A DNA stretch of 64,000 bases, taken from Escherichia coli. GTDB lineage: Bacteria > Pseudomonadota > Gammaproteobacteria > Enterobacterales > Enterobacteriaceae. The stretch's first letter is position 1. Every line of letters begins with the position of its first letter. The stretch lies in assembly GCF_016903815.1 (NCBI RefSeq), contig NZ_CP069973.1; one strand, 5' to 3'. The notes below the pieces were generated by a model. It searched no databases. It worked only from the letters and a program-made list of their open reading frames with translations, and was not told the origin of the DNA. Positions 15,743 through 25,948 of this stretch are shown piece by piece. The translations under genes and the position numbers were made by a program.

Positions 15743-16054
15743 TTAAAGACATTTAAATTCAATCACATAAAATTGTGTCTGACCGGGATAGATGTCAGCA
15801 ATGACTTTTTTCAGTTCAGTCAGGGTCATATTTTCCTGCTCTGCATGTTTTTCCGTCAGCGTATCCAGCGTTACGGTTGAGGTTGCGGTGACTTCAATCG
15901 TGCAAAAATAACCGTCATCTTCAAAACGTCCGACACGAAGCACATCACCCGTTTTGAAGTGCGATTCAGACTCGTCGCGGATGGTGATGGTTTTACGCCC
16001 AGCCAGAATGTCATCCTGGAAACGTTGAAAAAAAGTGATGTCGTTTGGCTGCAT
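15743..16054 (-). CDS. yqfB: ASCH-domain protein YqfB (N4-acetylcytidine amidohydrolase)
   Basis: 103-aa [59 protein letters not shown]... Confidence 0.88.
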
Positions 16055-16071
16055 GGTACTATTTCCTGTAA

Positions 16072-17532
<1,461 letters not shown>

Positions 17533-17544
17533 GTCGATGAAGTA

Positions 17545-17570
17545 CCGGATGCAATACTTGTTGCATCCGG
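17545..17570. terminator. Hairpin between convergent bglA and ygfF (putative bidirectional terminator)
   Basis: CCGGATGCAATACTTGTTGCATCCGG perfect 10-bp stem. Confidence 0.5.
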
Positions 17571-17588
17571 TCAGACAACTTCCCTGTT

Positions 17589-18332
17589 TTATTTCCCGCC
17601 CGCCAAATCGATAAAACTTCCCGTGACGTAAGAGGCTTTATCACTTAGTAGCCAGACAATGGCCTGCGCGACCTCTTCTGCCTGTCCACCACGCTGCATG
17701 GGGATGTTCGACTTAACGCGATCGACGCGTCCAGGCTCGCCGCCGCTGGCGTGCATTTCGGTATAAATAAACCCTGGCCGCACGCAGTTAACGCGGATCC
17801 CCTGCGCGGCGACTTCCAGCGATAGTCCGGTGGTTAACGTATCAATCGCCCCTTTCGATGCCGCGTAATCAACATATTCCCCTGGCGAACCCAACCGTGA
17901 GGCCACCGAAGAGACATTGACGATAGCGCCGCCACTGCCACCATTTTTAAGCGCCATGCGTTTTACCGCCTCGCGGCAGCAGAGAAAATATCCCGTCACG
18001 TTGGTGGAAAGTACTCGGTTGATTCGCTCTGCGGTAAGGTTTTCAACGGTGCACTGGGTAAACAAGATCCCGGCGTTATTGACCAGCGCTGCTAGCGGTT
18101 CATCGTGCTGATCGATTGCTGTAAACATCGCAACGACCTGGTTTTCGTCGCTGATATCCGCTTGGAGCACGAATGCTTTGCCACCGGCTTGCGTTATTAA
18201 GTTCATCACTTCCTGCGCCGCGTGGAGGTTTTGCTGATAATTAACCGCCACCGTATACCCTTCTTGCGCCAACAGTAATGCAGTTGCCCGCCCGATGCCG
18301 CGACTGCCACCAGTCACAAGTGCTATAGCCAT
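17589..18332 (-). CDS. ygfF: Short-chain dehydrogenase/reductase YgfF
   Basis: 247-aa ORF; TGGSRGIG Rossmann motif, catalytic YxxxK (YAASKGA), NAG motif. Confidence 0.9.
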   Translation of the reverse strand: MAIALVTGGSRGIGRATALLLAQEGYTVAVNYQQNLHAAQEVMNLITQAGGKAFVLQADISDENQVVAMFTAIDQHDEPLAALVNNAGILFTQCTVENLTAERINRVLSTNVTGYFLCCREAVKRMALKNGGSGGAIVNVSSVASRLGSPGEYVDYAASKGAIDTLTTGLSLEVAAQGIRVNCVRPGFIYTEMHASGGEPGRVDRVKSNIPMQRGGQAEEVAQAIVWLLSDKASYVTGSFIDLAGGK

Positions 18333-18416
18333 TTGTTTTTCCGAGAAAAATTAATTCGTTGACGTATCTTTGAGATTGCTAACAAACTGGCTCAATCTTC
18401 AATGTTGGCACGCTTT

Positions 18417-18520
18417 TCCCCCTCGCCCTTTCAGGGAGAGGGCCGTGGTGAGGGTAAATATTCGCGCCAGTGCCGGCCTGTTCCCCTCACCCTAACCCTC
18501 TCCCCAAAGGGGCGAGGGGA
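18417..18520. repeat. GC-rich nested palindromic extragenic repeat (boxC-like?) downstream of gcvP
   Basis: CCCCTCGCCC-GGGAGAGGG-GGTGAGGGT ... ACCCTCACC-CCCTCTCCC-GGGCGAGGGG: three nested inverted-repeat pairs. Confidence 0.6.
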
Positions 18521-18598
18521 CTGTCTGAGCACTTTTGTACTTTGTCATCTGACTAAAAAGGCGCCGAAGCGCCTTTAGAAAATAGTCGAATCAGTGAA

Positions 18599-21472
18599 TT
18601 ACTGGTATTCGCTAATCGGTACGCAGGAGCAGAACAGGTTACGGTCGCCGTAAACATCATCCAGACGTTTCACTGTCGGCCAGTATTTGTCTGCCACACC
18701 TGCCGGGAATACCGCAACTTCACGGCTGTACGGATGCGCCCACTCGGCGACCAGTTCGCTCTGAATGTGCGGCGCGTTCACCAGCGGGTTATCTTCCAGC
18801 GGCCAGACACCGGCTTTCACCTGGTCAATTTCTGCGCGGATAGCCAGCATCGCGTCGATAAAGCGATCCAGTTCCACTTTGCTTTCAGATTCAGTCGGTT
18901 CAACCATCAGCGTACCCGCCACCGGGAACGACATCGTCGGCGCGTGGAAACCGTAGTCGATCAGGCGCTTGGCAATATCCAGCTCGCTGATGCCGGTTTC
19001 TTCTTTCAGCGGGCGAATATCGAGAATACATTCGTGCGCCACGCGACCGTCGCGACCGGTATACAGCACCGGGAAGGCATCCTGCAGGCGGCTGGCAATA
19101 TAGTTGGCGCTGAGGATTGCCACCTGGCTTGCTTTTTTCAGCCCTTCTGCGCCCATCATGCGGATGTACATCCAGCTGATTGGCAGGATAGAGGCGCTAC
19201 CGAACGGTGCCGCAGAAACCGCGCCCTGACGGGTTAACATGCCTTCGATGTGCACCACGCTATGACCCGGTACAAACGGTGCCAAATGCGCTTTCACGCC
19301 GATCGGTCCCATACCCGGACCACCACCGCCGTGCGGAATGCAGAAAGTTTTATGTAGGTTAAGGTGTGAAACGTCCGCACCAATAAAGCCCGGCGAGGTG
19401 ATGCCAACCTGGGCGTTCATGTTCGCGCCATCAAGGTAAACCTGACCGCCGAACTGATGCACGACTTCACACACTTCACGGATCGTTTCTTCATACACGC
19501 CGTGGGTAGAAGGATAAGTCACCATGATACAGGAGAGGTTATCGCCCGCCTGTTCCGCTTTCGCGCGCAGATCAGTCAGATCGATGTTGCCGTTTTTATC
19601 ACACGCCACAACCACCACCTGCATTCCTGCCATATGTGCAGAAGCGGGGTTAGTTCCGTGCGCAGAAGCCGGGATCAGGCAGATATCGCGATGCCCTTCG
19701 TTGCGGCTTTCATGATAATGACGAATCGCCAGCAGGCCCGCGTATTCGCCCTGTGCGCCAGAGTTCGGCTGCATACAAACGGCGTCGTAACCGGTCAGTT
19801 TCACCAGCCAGTCAGCCAGCTGCGCAATCATCTGCTGATAACCTTCGGCCTGCTCCGGCGGGCAGAACGGGTGCAGTTCGGCAAATTCCGGCCAGGTGAT
19901 TGGGATCATCTCGGCGGCGGCGTTCAGTTTCATGGTGCAGGAACCCAGCGGGATCATCGCCTGATTCAGCGCCAGATCTTTACGCTCCAGCGAGTGCATA
20001 TAGCGCATCATTTCGGTTTCGCTGTGGTAGCGATTAAACACCGGATGGGTGAGGATTTCGTCGTCGCGCAGCATCGCAGGTTGAATAGAGCGGCTGTCGT
20101 GAGCCACGTCTTTGTCCAGCGTGTCGATGTCCAGGCCGTGGTTATCCCCCAGCAGTACGCTGAAAAGCTGCATCACGTTTTCGCGCGTGGTGGTTTCATC
20201 AAGGGTGATCCCAACCGCGTTCAGGATATCGCTACGCAGGTTGATTTCAGCCGCTTCGGCACGCGTCAGTACGCCCGCCTTGTCGGCCACTTCCACACAC
20301 AGAGTGTCGAAATAGTGCGCATGGCGCAGCTTCAGACCTTTTTGTTGCAGGCCTGCCGCCAGGATATCGGTCAGACGGTGAATGCGGTTAGCGATACGTT
20401 TCAGGCCAACCGGGCCGTGATAAACGGCATACAGGCTGGCGATGTTTGCCAGCAGTACCTGGGAAGTACAAATGTTGGAGTTCGCTTTCTCACGACGAAT
20501 ATGTTGCTCGCGAGTCTGCATCGCCATGCGCAGAGCGGTGTTGCCAGCTGCATCTTTCGATACACCGATAATACGGCCCGGCATTGAGCGTTTGTATTCA
20601 TCTTTCGCCGCAAAGAATGCCGCGTGTGGGCCACCGTAGCCCATCGGCACGCCGAAGCGTTGCGCCGAACCAAAAACAATATCCGCGCCCTGTTTACCCG
20701 GCGCAGTTAACAGCACCAGCGCCATAATATCGGCGGCAACGCTGACCACAATTTTGCGTGATTTCAGTTCGCTAATAAGCGCAGTGTAGTCGTGAATTTC
20801 ACCGGTAGTGCCTACCTGCTGTAACAGCACGCCGAAGACGTCCTGATGGTCGAGCACTTTTTGCGCGTCATCGACAATCACTTCAAAACCAAAGGTTTCG
20901 GCACGAGTACGGACCACATCCAGCGTTTGCGGATGCACATCGGAAGCCACGAAGAAGCGGTTGGCATTTTTCAGTTTGCTGACGCGTTTCGCCATCGCCA
21001 TTGCTTCGGCGGCAGCGGTGGCCTCGTCCAGAAGAGAAGCAGAGGCCATATCCAGTCCAGTCAAATCCAGCGTTACCTGCTGGAAGTTGAGCAGTGCTTC
21101 AAGGCGGCCCTGGGAGACTTCAGGTTGATACGGAGTGTACGCGGTATACCAGCCCGGATTTTCCAGCATGTTACGCAGGATAACCGGCGGTAGCTGCACG
21201 GCGGTGTAACCCATGCCGATGTAAGACGTGAAGCGTTTATTGCGACTGGCAATAGCCTTGAGTTCTGCCAGTGCGGCGTATTCGGTCGCCGGTGCGCCAA
21301 CCTGCGGTGGTGTCGCAAGCTGAATATCTTTCGGCACAATCTGGCCGGTCAGCGCGTTTAACGATTGTGCACCAACGGCATTCAGCATTTCTTGCTGTTG
21401 CGCGGCGTCCGGTCCGATATGGCGTTCAATAAAAGCGCCGCTGTTTTCAAGCTGGCTTAACGTCTGTGTCAT
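18599..21472 (-). CDS. gcvP: Glycine dehydrogenase (decarboxylating), glycine cleavage P protein
   Basis: 957-aa ORF matching GcvP; PLP-lysine region; operon with gcvT-gcvH. Confidence 0.96.
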
Positions 21473-21508
21473 GAGCGATGGTTCCTGAAACGTGCAGTGA
21501 ATTGTGAA

Positions 21509-21580
21509 CCTCTCTCCTTACGAAGAGAGTGAGGGTGAGGCATAAATTTTCCTCACCCTGATCCTCTCCCGCAGAAGAGG
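21509..21580. repeat. Second copy of the same GC-rich palindromic repeat family, in gcvH-gcvP intergenic spacer
   Basis: GAGAGTGAGGGTGAGG-loop-CCTCACCCTGATCCTCTCCC shares GAGGGTGAGG/CCTCACCCT/CCTCTCCC modules, same orientation as the 18417-18520 copy. Confidence 0.6.
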
Positions 21581-21590
21581 AATAAAGCCG

Positions 21591-21980
21591 TTACTCGTCT
21601 TCTAACAATGCTTCGTATGCGGTCGCATCCAGCAGTGATTCCAGTTCGCTTTCATCGCTGGCTTTGATTTTAAAGATCCAGCCACCTGCATACGGTTCGC
21701 TGTTCACCAGTTCCGGGGAATCGCTCAGTGCATCGTTTACCGCCACGATTTCACCGCTTACTGGCGCATAAATGTCTGACGCCGCTTTTACTGATTCGGC
21801 AACCGCGCAGTCATCGCCCGCGCTAACCGTTGCGCCCACTTCCGGCAGGTCAACAAACACCATATCGCCTAACAGCTCCTGAGCATGTTCGGTAATACCA
21901 ACGGTGTAAGTGCCGTCGGCTTCTTTACGCAGCCATTCGTGTTCTTTGCTGTATTTCAGTTCTGCTGGTACGTTGCTCAT
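21591..21980 (-). CDS. gcvH: Glycine cleavage system lipoyl carrier H protein
   Basis: 129-aa [34 protein letters not shown]...; lipoyl-lysine motif ESVKAASD. Confidence 0.95.
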
Positions 21981-22003
21981 CAATCAATCTCCAAAAAAGT
22001 AAA

Positions 22004-23098
22004 TCACGCGACGGCTTTGCCGTTACGCACAAAAACAGGTTTTGTCACTTTAACCGGCATTTCACGGTTGCGAATTTGCACAATCGCCGTTTCGCCAATA
22101 CCTTCCGGCACGCGCGCCAGCGCAATGCTGTAACCCAGCGTCGGGGAGAAAGTACCGCTGGTGATAATGCCTTCATGCTGGTTGCCCTGCGCATCGGTAA
22201 AGCGTACCGGCAGTTCATTACGCAGCACGCCTTTTTCGGTCATCACCAGACCAACCAGTTTTTCTGTACCATGCTCACGCTGCACTTCCAGGGCTTCACG
22301 ACCGATAAAGTCACGATCTGCCGGTTCCCAGGCGATAGTCCAGCCCATGTTGGCGGCTAAAGGAGAAATAGTTTCGTCCATCTCCTGACCATAAAGATTC
22401 ATGCCCGCTTCCAGACGCAGCGTGTCACGCGCGCCCAAGCCACATGGCTTAACACCCGCTTCCACCAGCGCACGCCAGAAATCGGCCGCTTTTTCATTGG
22501 GCAGCGCAATTTCATAGCCCGCTTCACCGGTATAACCAGTGGTGGCAATAAACAGATCGCCCGCCTGCACGCCAAAGAACGGTTTCATCCCTTCCACCGC
22601 CTGACGCTGGGCGTCATTAAACAGTGTGGCAGCTTTTGCCTGCGCATTCGGCCCTTGCACGGCAATCATGGAAAGGTCATCACGAACGGTAATTTCGATG
22701 CCGAAAGGTTCAGCGTGTTGGGTAATCCAGGATAGGTCTTTTTCGCGGGTGGCGGAGTTAACAACGAGGCGGAAGAAATCTTCAGTAAAGTAGTAGACGA
22801 TGAGGTCATCTATCACACCGCCAGAGGCATTCAACATCCCCGAGTAAAGGGCTTTGCCGCTTTTGGTGAGCTTCGCCACATCGTTCGCCAGCAGATAACG
22901 CAGAAACTCCCGGGTGCGGCTGCCGCGGAGATCGACGATGGTCATATGTGACACATCAAACATTCCGGCATCGGTACGTACCGCATGATGTTCGTCGATT
23001 TGCGAACCGTAATGCAGCGGCATCATCCAGCCGTGGAAATCCACCATGCGAGCGCCGCAAAGCGTGTGTTGTTCGTACAAAGGAGTCTGTTGTGCCAT
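22004..23098 (-). CDS. gcvT: Aminomethyltransferase, glycine cleavage T protein (start at [11 protein letters not shown]; the longer ORF N-terminus is leader)
   Basis: 364-aa protein matching GcvT. Confidence 0.94.
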
Positions 23099-23470
23099 CT
23101 TGTCCTCATTGAATAAGCGGGGCTGACAACTTTTCATGGTGAAATTATCACCACGAAACCCAGCATCGGAGCCACTCCCGGTCCCCAACGCAATCGTTCT
23201 CTTTTGCCTGAACTTACCACCGAAACAGACTGTTAACCATAAGGTAAAATTGATCATCACATTAGCTTATGGTTAAAAAACGCCAAAATCGCGACAGAAT
23301 AAAAAACCAAAAAACACACCAGTTTCTATATAAAGATGATGCCATTAGAAAGCTAATTTGAATAAGGCAATATTAAGAGCTAAAAAAATGTCAAAAAACA
23401 CTAAATCAAAAAATAATGACATTAGAAAATATAATGCGAAAACGGAGGTGAAATTAGTTTATTTCAAATG
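23099..23470 (-). promoter_or_regulatory. gcvTHP promoter/control region: long AT-rich upstream tract with repeated CATTAG/CTAAT motifs
   Basis: CATTAG at 23343 and 23420, CTAATT at 23353, ATTAG at 23453, embedded in A/T-rich DNA with A-tracts; position upstream of gcvT fits the known GcvA/Lrp-controlled region. Confidence 0.55.
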
Positions 23471-23544
23471 AGGAAAATCTCCCGGCGAAAAAACCGGGAG
23501 ATGAAAGTGTGATGGGTATCAAATAAACAGCAGAAGAGAAATTT

Positions 23545-24747
23545 TTAACGCAGCCATTCAGGCAAATCGTTTAATCCCATTGCCTGGCGGATAAGTTGCG
23601 GCTTAACGCCAGGAAGCGTGTCGGCCAGTTTCAAACCAATATCACGCAGCAGTTTTTTCGCCGGATTGGTACCGGAAAACAGATCGCGGAATCCCTGCAT
23701 ACCAGCCAGCATCAGCGCCGCACTGTGCTTGCGGCTACGCTCATACCGGCGCAGGTAAATGTACTGCCCGATGTCTTTCCCCTGACGATGCAACCGTTTC
23801 AGTTCAGCAATCAGCTCTGCAGCATCCATAAAGCCGAGATTTACTCCCTGCCCCGCCAGCGGGTGAATGGTATGCGCGGCGTCGCCCACCAGCACCAGAC
23901 GGTGCGCGGCAAACTGGCGCGCATAACGCCCCGTCAGTGGGAACACCTGACGCGCGCTCTCAACCTTGCATAAGCCCAGGCGATTATCAAAAGCGATATT
24001 TAACGCGCGATTAAATTCATCTTCACTTGCCTGCTGCATCCGCTGCGCTTCCTCTGGCGACAGTGACCAGACAATTGAGCAAAGATGCGGATCGCTAAGC
24101 GGTAAAAAGGCCAGAATGCCTTCGCCATGGAAAACCTGCCGCGCCACCGCATCATGCGGTTCTTCCGTGCGAATGGTCGCTACCAGCGCGTGATGCTGAT
24201 AATCCCAGAAAGTCAGCGGAATATCTGCTTTGTTGCGCAACCAGGAATTAGCACCGTCCGCGCCAATCACCAGACGCGCCGTTAACATGCTGCCATCTTT
24301 CAGCGTCAGGAAAGTTTCATTTTCTCCCCAGGCGACCTGCTGTAATTCTGCGGGGGCCAACAGAGTGATATCTGACGACTGCTGCGCTTTGTTCCACAGC
24401 GTGTAGTGAATCACTGAGTTTTCAACGATATGCCCAAGATGGCTATAGCCCATGCTTTGATCGTCAAACGAAATGTGACCAAAACTGTCTTTGTCCCACA
24501 CTTCCATACCGTGATAACAACTGGCCCTACGAGAGAGAATGTCCTGCCAGACGCCAAGACGGGTGAGTAATTTTTCGCTGGCGGCATTGATAGCCGAAAC
24601 GCGCAGTTGTGGTGGTGCATCCGCCGCCAGAGGTTCCGGTACGCGCTGCTCCAGTACGGCAACGCGTAAGCCGCTCCCCTGTAAGCCGCAGGCAACCGCC
24701 AGCCCCACCATGCCGCCACCAACAATGGCTACATCAACACTTTGCAT
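23545..24747 (-). CDS. ubiI: FAD-dependent 2-octaprenylphenol hydroxylase UbiI (VisC)
   Basis: 400-aa ORF; N-terminal GxGxxG FAD motif (VAIVGGGMVGLAVA), flavin monooxygenase family. Confidence 0.92.
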   Translation of the reverse strand: MQSVDVAIVGGGMVGLAVACGLQGSGLRVAVLEQRVPEPLAADAPPQLRVSAINAASEKLLTRLGVWQDILSRRASCYHGMEVWDKDSFGHISFDDQSMGYSHLGHIVENSVIHYTLWNKAQQSSDITLLAPAELQQVAWGENETFLTLKDGSMLTARLVIGADGANSWLRNKADIPLTFWDYQHHALVATIRTEEPHDAVARQVFHGEGILAFLPLSDPHLCSIVWSLSPEEAQRMQQASEDEFNRALNIAFDNRLGLCKVESARQVFPLTGRYARQFAAHRLVLVGDAAHTIHPLAGQGVNLGFMDAAELIAELKRLHRQGKDIGQYIYLRRYERSRKHSAALMLAGMQGFRDLFSGTNPAKKLLRDIGLKLADTLPGVKPQLIRQAMGLNDLPEWLR

Positions 24748-24769
24748 TGTTTATTCCTTAAAACCGCCT

Positions 24770-25948
24770 TCAACGCGCCACCCAACCGAGGGTGCGCTGC
24801 GCCAGCACATCGCGTGCCGGGGTGAATAATTCCATCGTCATCAGTCCGATGTTGCGCCCGACAACCAGCGGTGCCCAACGGTTGGCAAAAAGATGTACCA
24901 GGCTGTCCGTGACGCCGATGGTTGCTTCGCGATCGCTCTGTCGACGCTGCTGATAACGGCACAATACGCCGTAATCCCCCATGTCTTCTCCGCGCTCCTG
25001 CGCCTGAGTCAGGGTTTCCGCAAGACTCATCACATCTCGCATACCGAGGTTGAACCCTTGCCCGGCAATCGGGTGCAGGGTTTGCGCCGCATTGCCCACC
25101 AGCACGGTACGATGGGTAATAGCTCTGGCGGCGCGGGTTAACGCCAGCGGATAAGCACTGCGTTTACCGGCGTGGGTAATTTTTCCAAGTCGCCAGCCAA
25201 AGGCCGACTGGAGCTCACGGCAAAACTTCTCGTCACTCCACGACAGCACCTCTTCGCGCCGTTCCAGTGGATGACACCAGACCAGCGAACAGCGTCCGTC
25301 AGACATCGGCAACATCGCCAGCGGGCCATGTTGCGTGAAGCGTTCAAAAGCGCGGCCTTCGTGCGCAACAGAAGTAGCAACGTTGGCAATCACTGCCAGT
25401 TGTTCGTAAGGCTCCTGCTGCCAGTCAACGCCGCACGCGGTGGCTAACGCTGAATGGGTGCCATCAGCGGCTACCAGCACGCGGCCCGTCAGCGTCTCGC
25501 CACTCTCCAGCGTCACTTCAACGTGACTCTGAGTACGGGCAACGTTAGCCACGCGATCAGGGCAATGCAGCGTTACGCCAGGTGCTTTACGCAGCAATGC
25601 AAACAGCCGTTGCCCGACATTGTGCAATTCGACAACCTGTCCCAGCGCCGCCAGTTGGTAATCTTCTGCGGCGAGGGTGACAAATCCAGCGTGACCACGA
25701 TCGCTGACATGCACGGTGGTGATGGCAGTTGCGCAATCCGCCAGAGATTGCCAGACGCCGATGCGCGCCAGTTGCTGACAGGTACCCGCCGCCAGCGCTA
25801 TCGCTCGTCCATCAAAGCCCGGATGAGCATGTGACTCTGGCGCAGTCGCTTCAATCAAATGTACCGGCAGCGCCCCGTGACTTAACCGGGAAATAGCCAG
25901 CGCCAGCGTCGCGCCCGCCATGCCGCCACCGACGATGATTACGCTCAT
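24770..25948 (-). CDS. ubiH: 2-octaprenyl-6-methoxyphenol hydroxylase UbiH
   Basis: 392-aa ORF; MSVIIVGGGMAGATLALA FAD motif; paralog of UbiI immediately upstream. Confidence 0.93.
   Translation of the reverse strand: MSVIIVGGGMAGATLALAISRLSHGALPVHLIEATAPESHAHPGFDGRAIALAAGTCQQLARIGVWQSLADCATAITTVHVSDRGHAGFVTLAAEDYQLAALGQVVELHNVGQRLFALLRKAPGVTLHCPDRVANVARTQSHVEVTLESGETLTGRVLVAADGTHSALATACGVDWQQEPYEQLAVIANVATSVAHEGRAFERFTQHGPLAMLPMSDGRCSLVWCHPLERREEVLSWSDEKFCRELQSAFGWRLGKITHAGKRSAYPLALTRAARAITHRTVLVGNAAQTLHPIAGQGFNLGMRDVMSLAETLTQAQERGEDMGDYGVLCRYQQRRQSDREATIGVTDSLVHLFANRWAPLVVGRNIGLMTMELFTPARDVLAQRTLGWVAR

Follow-up and report, generated by a model that had tools for sequence, protein, structure and literature searches.

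What does a repeated palindrome do when it lies between two genes of one operon? The question is raised by the gcvTHP operon of Escherichia coli. The window analysed here is a stretch of 64,000 nucleotides (nt) of contig NZ_CP069973.1 (assembly GCF_016903815.1). It contains two related GC-rich palindromes, one beyond the 3' end of gcvP (copy 1) and the other in the 118-nt spacer between gcvH and gcvP (copy 2). A preliminary description had noted the pair and proposed that the copy inside the operon could form an RNA hairpin that affects gcvP versus gcvTH expression or mRNA decay. This interpretation is supported on its main points. It is probable, in our judgement, that copy 2 is a fixed remnant of a BoxC palindrome, and that its central hairpin defines and protects the 3' end of gcvTH RNA, uncoupling it from gcvP RNA. 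The window is 100% identical to E. coli strain 7/2 and nearly identical to K-12, and the gcvH-gcvP spacer is identical in MG1655; MG1655 coordinates are obtained by adding 3027569 to the window position. The genes gcvT, gcvH, gcvP, and ygfF are all on the minus strand. Both palindromes are intergenic, and copy 2 is inside gcvTHP.

The observation of a repeat pair is confirmed, and the same modules occur in both copies as described. A 20-mer common to copies 1 and 2 agrees at 18 of 20 positions. The pattern CCTCACCCTNNNCCTCTCCC, with three or fewer mismatches, matches only the four arms of the two copies in 64 kb. By chance, 0.04 matches are expected, and four matches were reached in none of the 100 shuffles. 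Copy 1 (18418-18521, plus strand) is a full-length BoxC palindrome, in which two inverted BoxC units are placed around a centre of ~20 nt. Its right-arm unit (18479-18529, plus strand) is an exact match to the published K-12 member eco:11 (eco:11_BoxC; profile E 2.7e-17), and its left-arm unit (18411-18458, minus strand) corresponds to the published member eco:10 with one mismatch (profile E 6.3e-10). Since both arms match members in the list of PMC2267715, copy 1 is an already catalogued inverted BoxC dimer, and the original assignment of the family as boxC-like, not REP or ERIC, stands.

Two models were used for the family. The half-unit profile was made from 20 published BoxC members, leaving this locus out, and the covariance model R1 from five other full-length E. 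coli copies, without copy 2. R1 detected copy 1 with 120.9 bits (E 1.4e-27) on the plus strand and 67.6 bits on the minus strand. Copy 2 (21504-21586, minus strand) was detected as well, the minus strand reaching 31.1 bits (E 2.4e-5) and the plus strand 23.6 bits (E 0.0017). Only these two were found over the window; everything else had an E-value of 0.9 or worse. When R1 was run over 1.54 Mb around the gcv loci of 86 other genomes, the matches were almost only in gcvH-gcvP spacers. Canonical BoxC palindromes (55-72 bits) are present in this spacer in five Enterobacter genomes and a Pseudocitrobacter, and an intermediate BoxC form (32.9 bits) is present in that of a divergent Escherichia genome. 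Based on the R1 match and the canonical copies at the same position in other genera, copy 2 is a degenerate BoxC-derived palindrome with a shortened centre. The half-unit profile matched its two arms with E 0.0056 and 0.24.

The two inverted-repeat arms of copy 2, at 21512-21540 and 21551-21579, each span 29 nt, with 72% complementarity. They carry degenerate BoxC small hairpins of 8 bp each, one G-U pair included. The modules reported for copy 2, GAGGGTGAGG, CCTCACCCT, and CCTCTCCC, are all present. The two copies were said to be in the same orientation. The half-unit profile agrees, preferring the plus strand for both, but R1 prefers the plus strand for copy 1 and the minus strand for copy 2. 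The GC-rich unit CCCCTCACCCTAACCCTCTCCCC-NNN-GGGGCGAGGGGAC is shared with the published family. Copy 2 is absent from the 2008 member list (PMC2267715), does not have the long central segment, and has lost several G-C pairs. Its assignment to BoxC appears to be new.

Copy 2 is transcribed within the gcvTHP mRNA, as it is fixed in the gcvH-gcvP spacer. The sense-strand RNA of the spacer forms three hairpins, with a folding energy of -44.3 kcal/mol (z -4.35). The palindrome is stable as RNA as suggested earlier, but its best fold is three separate hairpins and not one nested stem. Hairpin 1, UCCUCUUC-UGCG-GGGAGAGGA (21562-21581, minus strand; -11.8 kcal/mol), is part of the minimum-energy fold and begins 9 nt past the gcvH stop codon, at spacer positions 10-29. 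The central hairpin (21532-21559, minus strand; -15.1 kcal/mol) consists of AGGGUGAGG, a 10-nt loop, and CCUCACCCU, with 9 bp. Hairpin 3, CUCUCUUC-GUAA-GGAGAGAG (21510-21529, minus strand; -10.6 kcal/mol), is also in the fold. The sense strand has two G-U pairs, and for this reason the antisense strand of the E. coli spacer folds less well, at -37.5 kcal/mol. The consensus scan for promoters and terminators found no site at either element and no gcvP promoter in the spacer.

An abundant RNA 3' end is located inside copy 2. It is the end at MG1655 3049097 (window 21528, minus strand) in Supplementary file 1 of Adams et al. 2021 (PMC7815308), with average Term-seq reads of 412,219 in lysogeny broth (LB) at optical density (OD) 0.4 and 171,112 in LB at OD 2.0; the M63 data contain it too. 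It was classed as "orphan" in that study because it is more than 50 nt past gcvH. The end is 4 nt beyond the central 9-bp stem (...CCUCACCCU CACU) and falls in the 5' strand of hairpin 3. For the 3' end of the operon terminator (MG1655 3046123, window 18554), the number of reads at OD 0.4 in LB is 36,065 (PMC7815308), and the end in copy 2 thus has ~11 times more reads under this condition. Since this end was observed in three conditions, the element does have a mapped 3' end, which the preliminary description had made a test of its proposal. The idea of a hairpin acting in RNA is supported by this strong 3' end; an effect on gcvP versus gcvTH may follow from it. Three other BoxC hairpins also have 3' ends 4-5 nt past the stem without a U-run, at 847200, 3781065 (after lldD), and 3959467. 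The dataset of Yan 2018 has no gcv entries.

REP hairpins in other operons block 3'-to-5' exonucleases. We infer a similar mechanism for copy 2 and, from it, an effect on relative expression. An old degenerate BoxC palindrome, transcribed in the gcvTHP mRNA, would fold into three hairpins rich in GC, of which the central one, with 9 bp, would set the abundant 3' end 4 nt past its stem. After downstream cleavage or pausing, this central hairpin would block 3'-to-5' exonucleases, which is the most likely cause of the 3' end. The 4-nt offset fits exonuclease trimming up to a stable hairpin. The outcome would be a stable gcvT-gcvH RNA species, and the levels of gcvTH should come uncoupled from those of gcvP. 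If this is true, it explains how E. coli could make more message for the T and H proteins than for the P protein from one promoter.

Copy 2 was found in 5425 of the 5426 complete E. coli genomes, with at least 95% identity in all but two. Among six E. coli alleles of the spacer, every substitution or indel is in the central loop or in the loop of hairpin 3, and the stem positions are invariant. One strain, VTB96775v, shows an expansion of copy 2 by a 52-nt palindromic inverted duplication, which generates a near-perfect long hairpin with a spacer fold of -96 kcal/mol. The expansion has the appearance of a template switch within the palindrome.

The gcvH-gcvP spacer was surveyed in 85 genomes, which do not include Klebsiella, E. 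albertii, or E. fergusonii. The classification by regular expressions is crude, and the labels for REP and terminators include false calls, so counts are approximate. A strong hairpin directly after gcvH is kept in almost every sampled lineage, but its sequence is not the same. The full BoxC palindrome is found in Enterobacter, Pseudocitrobacter, and Escherichia, and a single BoxC-type small hairpin in Lelliottia, Phytobacter, and Cedecea. A REP pair occupies the position in Salmonella, many Citrobacter, and others, and an ERIC element in Kluyvera, some Citrobacter, and Atlantibacter. A hairpin followed by a U-run is observed in Providencia, Dickeya, Yersinia nurmii, Pantoea, and several Shewanella; in Serratia and Photorhabdus it is recognized by eye, outside the rule of the scan. 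The BoxC and REP elements of other species begin within ~10 nt of the gcvH stop codon. The gcvT-gcvH spacer stays at ~25 nt and is never colonised. The synteny of gcvTHP is conserved across Enterobacterales.

Such a distribution is in keeping with selection for a hairpin after gcvH, although an insertion hot spot could be the source of much of it. A wider hypothesis, which we hold only tentatively, is that the hairpin after gcvH is a selected 3'-end module setting gcvTH above gcvP, whose sequence has been swapped repeatedly, with a terminator in Yersinia, Serratia, Providencia, Pantoea, and Shewanella and with REP, ERIC, or BoxC in Enterobacteriaceae. Repeats would then be interchangeable RNA-structure cassettes, and BoxC would generally be an exonuclease barrier. 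A different palindrome or a true terminator at the same junction provides a natural experiment between "insertion hot spot" and "selected hairpin".

Several observations weigh against a role of copy 2 as a barrier. Across 45 spacers from different species there is no consistent strand bias, and on average the antisense strand folds better by 2.4 kcal/mol. By the half-unit profile, copy 2 is marginal (E 0.0056 and 0.24). BLAST treats it as unique (median, one place per genome), and as a query it recruited no other copy. No hairpin follows gcvH in Erwinia, where the spacer is 23 nt, or in Rosenbergiella, where it is 8 nt. Term-seq cannot tell termination from processing, and some ends may be library artefacts according to the authors (PMC7815308). 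The mRNA half-lives of gcvH at three growth rates are 3.00, 2.51, and 1.85 min versus 2.38, 1.96, and 1.71 min for gcvP, but at the fastest growth rate they are 2.52 min for gcvH and 3.67 min for gcvP (Esquerre 2015). This support is weak and mixed, and the half-life data are ambiguous.

Copy 2 could instead be a decayed selfish or junk repeat in a permissive spacer, with the 3' end incidental to a stable hairpin and no selected effect on gcv. Its degenerate sequence is in line with this, as is the presence of three unrelated repeat families in the spacer, which is expected for an insertion hot spot. Erwinia and Rosenbergiella manage without the hairpin, the half-lives are ambiguous, and a literature search for the function of BoxC found no functional study: PMC2267715 was relevant, and the other matches to "boxC" were pneumococcal BOX elements or small nucleolar RNAs. 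On this neutral view, copy 2 is an ordinary decayed repeat. Nevertheless, we regard neutrality as unlikely, if by no means negligible. The stems are invariant among six alleles with variable loops, and the element is fixed in all but one of the genomes. In E. coli the G-U pairs favour the transcribed strand, terminator-like hairpins occur at the same place in distant relatives, and the short gcvT-gcvH spacer has never been colonised. The 3' end itself might be generated by polymerase stopping at the central hairpin, which would then be a partial terminator, and not by exonuclease trimming. The abundance of the end and the hairpins with a U-run at this position in related Enterobacterales are compatible with termination. 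However, the central stem is followed by CACUCUCUUCGUAA, there is no U-tract after any stem of copy 2, and the consensus scan calls no terminator there. The distance of the end from the stem is just 4 nt and equals that at other hairpins lacking a U-tract, and the gcv region has no entry in the list of Rho-termination regions (PMC7815308). Partial termination is rather improbable as the origin of the end.

Two further explanations are less probable still. A REP within ~15 nt of a stop codon reportedly stalls terminating ribosomes and lowers output, as described by Liang, Rudd, and Deutscher in 2015. Hairpin 1, 9 nt past the gcvH stop codon, could likewise stall terminating ribosomes and lower GcvH, or could modulate gcvP initiation, and the close approach of BoxC and REP elements to this stop codon in other species is consistent with such an effect. 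On the other hand, hairpin 1 is weaker than the central hairpin, at -11.8 kcal/mol, and the gcvP leader with the ribosome-binding region (AUUCACUGCACGUUUCAGGAACCAUCGCUC; 21473-21502, minus strand) is conserved independently and is separate from copy 2, outside the repeat. A translational effect seems improbable. It is very hard to credit a role at the DNA level, with the two copies as ends of a mobile or recombining segment carrying gcvP, or as protein-binding or cruciform sites. Two related palindromes ~3 kb apart around one gene might suggest such a unit, but copy 2 is fixed and copy 1 is missing from as many as 44% of genomes, copy 1 is outside the operon terminator, and the synteny of gcvTHP is conserved. 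The idea of a composite transposon, or of any functional "bracketing" of gcvP, was rejected on the fixation of copy 2, the variability of copy 1, and the conserved synteny. The barrier at the 3' end of gcvTH is the preferred explanation of copy 2.

Copy 1 is in the gcvP-ygfF spacer, beyond the gcvP terminator and upstream of ygfF. The intrinsic terminator of gcvP and the operon (AAAGGCGCUUCGGCGCCUUUUU; 18556-18578, minus strand) is supported by the hairpin in the fold and a primary Term-seq 3' end, and copy 1, downstream of it, is outside the operon. Copy 1 probably has no role in gcv expression. The Term-seq data for LB at OD 0.4 include no 3' end at this copy (Adams 2021, PMC7815308). Its two inverted-repeat arms, 18419-18457 and 18481-18519, each span 39 nt, with 79% complementarity. 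As RNA, it forms one long hairpin inside a region folding at -107.7 kcal/mol (z -5.96). It contains the BoxC small hairpin CCCTCTCCC-loop-GGGAGAGGG within a GC-rich imperfect palindrome. Of the three nested pairs originally reported in it, CCCCTCGCCC/GGGGCGAGGGG and GGGAGAGGG/CCCTCTCCC are present, and the third matches at 8 of 9 positions, its right arm being CCCCTCACC and not ACCCTCACC.

The alignment ends at the gcvP terminator in as many as 44% of the E. coli genomes. The genomes inspected that have no copy 1, an O157 strain and strain 875, have neither copy 1 nor ygfF. In these two strains, ~115 bp of unrelated sequence with a REP-like hairpin takes the place of ~1 kb that includes ygfF and copy 1 (window 17533-18552, from the bglA stop codon to the gcvP terminator). 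The location of ygfF downstream of gcvP is ancestral in Enterobacterales, and the absence of ygfF and copy 1 is therefore a loss. Since copy 2 is fixed and copy 1 is often absent, the "bracketing" of gcvP has no structural meaning. The claim that one family sits at both ends of gcvP holds in that both copies are BoxC, but the arrangement is coincidental and the copies are independent. With regard to miniature inverted-repeat transposable elements (non-autonomous transposons), the element is palindromic, and the only polymorphism seen at copy 1 is the ~1 kb replacement that also removes ygfF, and not a precise insertion or excision.

The coordinates of gcvH (21591-21980, minus strand) and gcvP (18599-21472, minus strand) are from the list of open reading frames and the RefSeq annotation of the identical K-12 region. 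The coding sequence of gcvT is at about 22004-23098 (minus strand), and ygfF is at 17589-18332 (minus strand). Two other Term-seq ends are located at the start of the operon. One, at window 23033 (MG1655 3050602, minus strand), is 65 nt inside gcvT and has 105,625 reads; the other, at window 23154 (MG1655 3050723, minus strand), is in the gcvT leader and has 80,101 reads in LB at OD 2.0. These ends hint at premature termination or processing at the operon start. A hairpin without a U-tract, ACCGGATGCAA..TTGCATCCGGT (17544-17575), is found after bglA, and a published end at window 17575 (MG1655 3045144, plus strand) is 4 nt past its stem, an offset like that of the BoxC hairpins. The gcvP leader mentioned above, the 30 nt before the start codon, is near-invariant across Enterobacteriaceae whatever repeat is upstream, and the conservation reaches well beyond the ribosome-binding site; its segment UUCAGGA is retained in Pantoea and Yersinia. 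The spacers of C. youngae, Kluyvera, and C. freundii contain a full ERIC, and in Kluyvera a REP is directly beside the ERIC, forming composite repeats. Shortened ERIC-like palindromes are seen in Atlantibacter, Citrobacter Cu233, and two others.

BoxC was reportedly named by Bergler et al. in 1992 at the envM (fabI) locus. A BoxC unit is present at the fabI locus in the fabI-ycjD region of MG1655. In the same region, a sequence similar to the BoxC left arm, CCCCCTCGCTCTTTCAGGGAGAGG, extends into the annotated 3' end of ycjD, ~190 bp from a separate BoxC half-unit. The family was described as 56 bp long with 32 copies in K-12 (Bachellier, Clement and Hofnung 1999, as cited in PMC2267715), and PMC2267715 itself gives a 50-bp unit with 22 members (Additional file 1). 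BoxC elements are extragenic, often transcribed, and predicted to have alternative folds (PMC2267715). BLAST shows that the family is dispersed. Used as the query, copy 1 matches between 1 and 31 places in an E. coli genome (median 17; 21 in K-12 BW25113). Further copies therefore do exist elsewhere in the genome, and their absence would have refuted the preliminary description. The loci read include alx-sstT, entC-fepB, phnE-phnD (a spacer within an operon), tusA-zntA, gldA-yijF, and fabI-ycjD. The ST131 and similar genomes among those listed have just one or two BLAST-detectable BoxC places each, and the copy number or the divergence of BoxC may differ strongly between E. coli lineages.

The family and copy 1 are already known, and since BoxC is a known family the novelty is modest. 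What appears to be new is the position of copy 2 at a 3' end that was published as strong but drew no comment, and also the way in which hairpin types succeed one another at the junction. Although BoxC has been in catalogues for decades, no function has been assigned to it. The position of copy 2 at the dominant 3' end of the operon, together with the three BoxC hairpins at the same 4-5 nt offset, gives the family a testable role as REP-like protectors of 3' ends.

The Rfam covariance scan of positions 16000-25000 gave nothing above threshold; the sole match was whalefall-1 (E 0.22), whose 19.8 bits fall short of the gathering score of 37. ERIC is a palindrome of ~126 bp with the core ...GTGACTGGGGTGAGCG..., and no similarity to ERIC/IRU was found in either window element. 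ERIC/IRU elements are nevertheless also transcribed intergenic palindromes, and they occupy the same spacer in other species. Copy 2, a hairpin directly after gcvH with a strong 3' end, resembles the intrinsic (Rho-independent) terminators that serve as attenuators inside operons, but it has no U-tract and its end is 4 nt past the stem. To our knowledge, BoxC has no link to a RAYT-type transposase. REP belongs to a different sequence family; its consensus, GCCGGATG... / ...CATCCGGC, is absent from both window elements. REP pairs fill the same spacer in Salmonella and Citrobacter. The REP between malE and malF was reportedly described by Newbury et al. in 1987 as an intercistronic mRNA stabiliser. 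Like such REP/BIME stabilisers, copy 2 is an operon-internal palindromic repeat at the 3' end of an upstream message without a U-tract. The findings extend the familiar theme of REP-like stabilisers inside operons.

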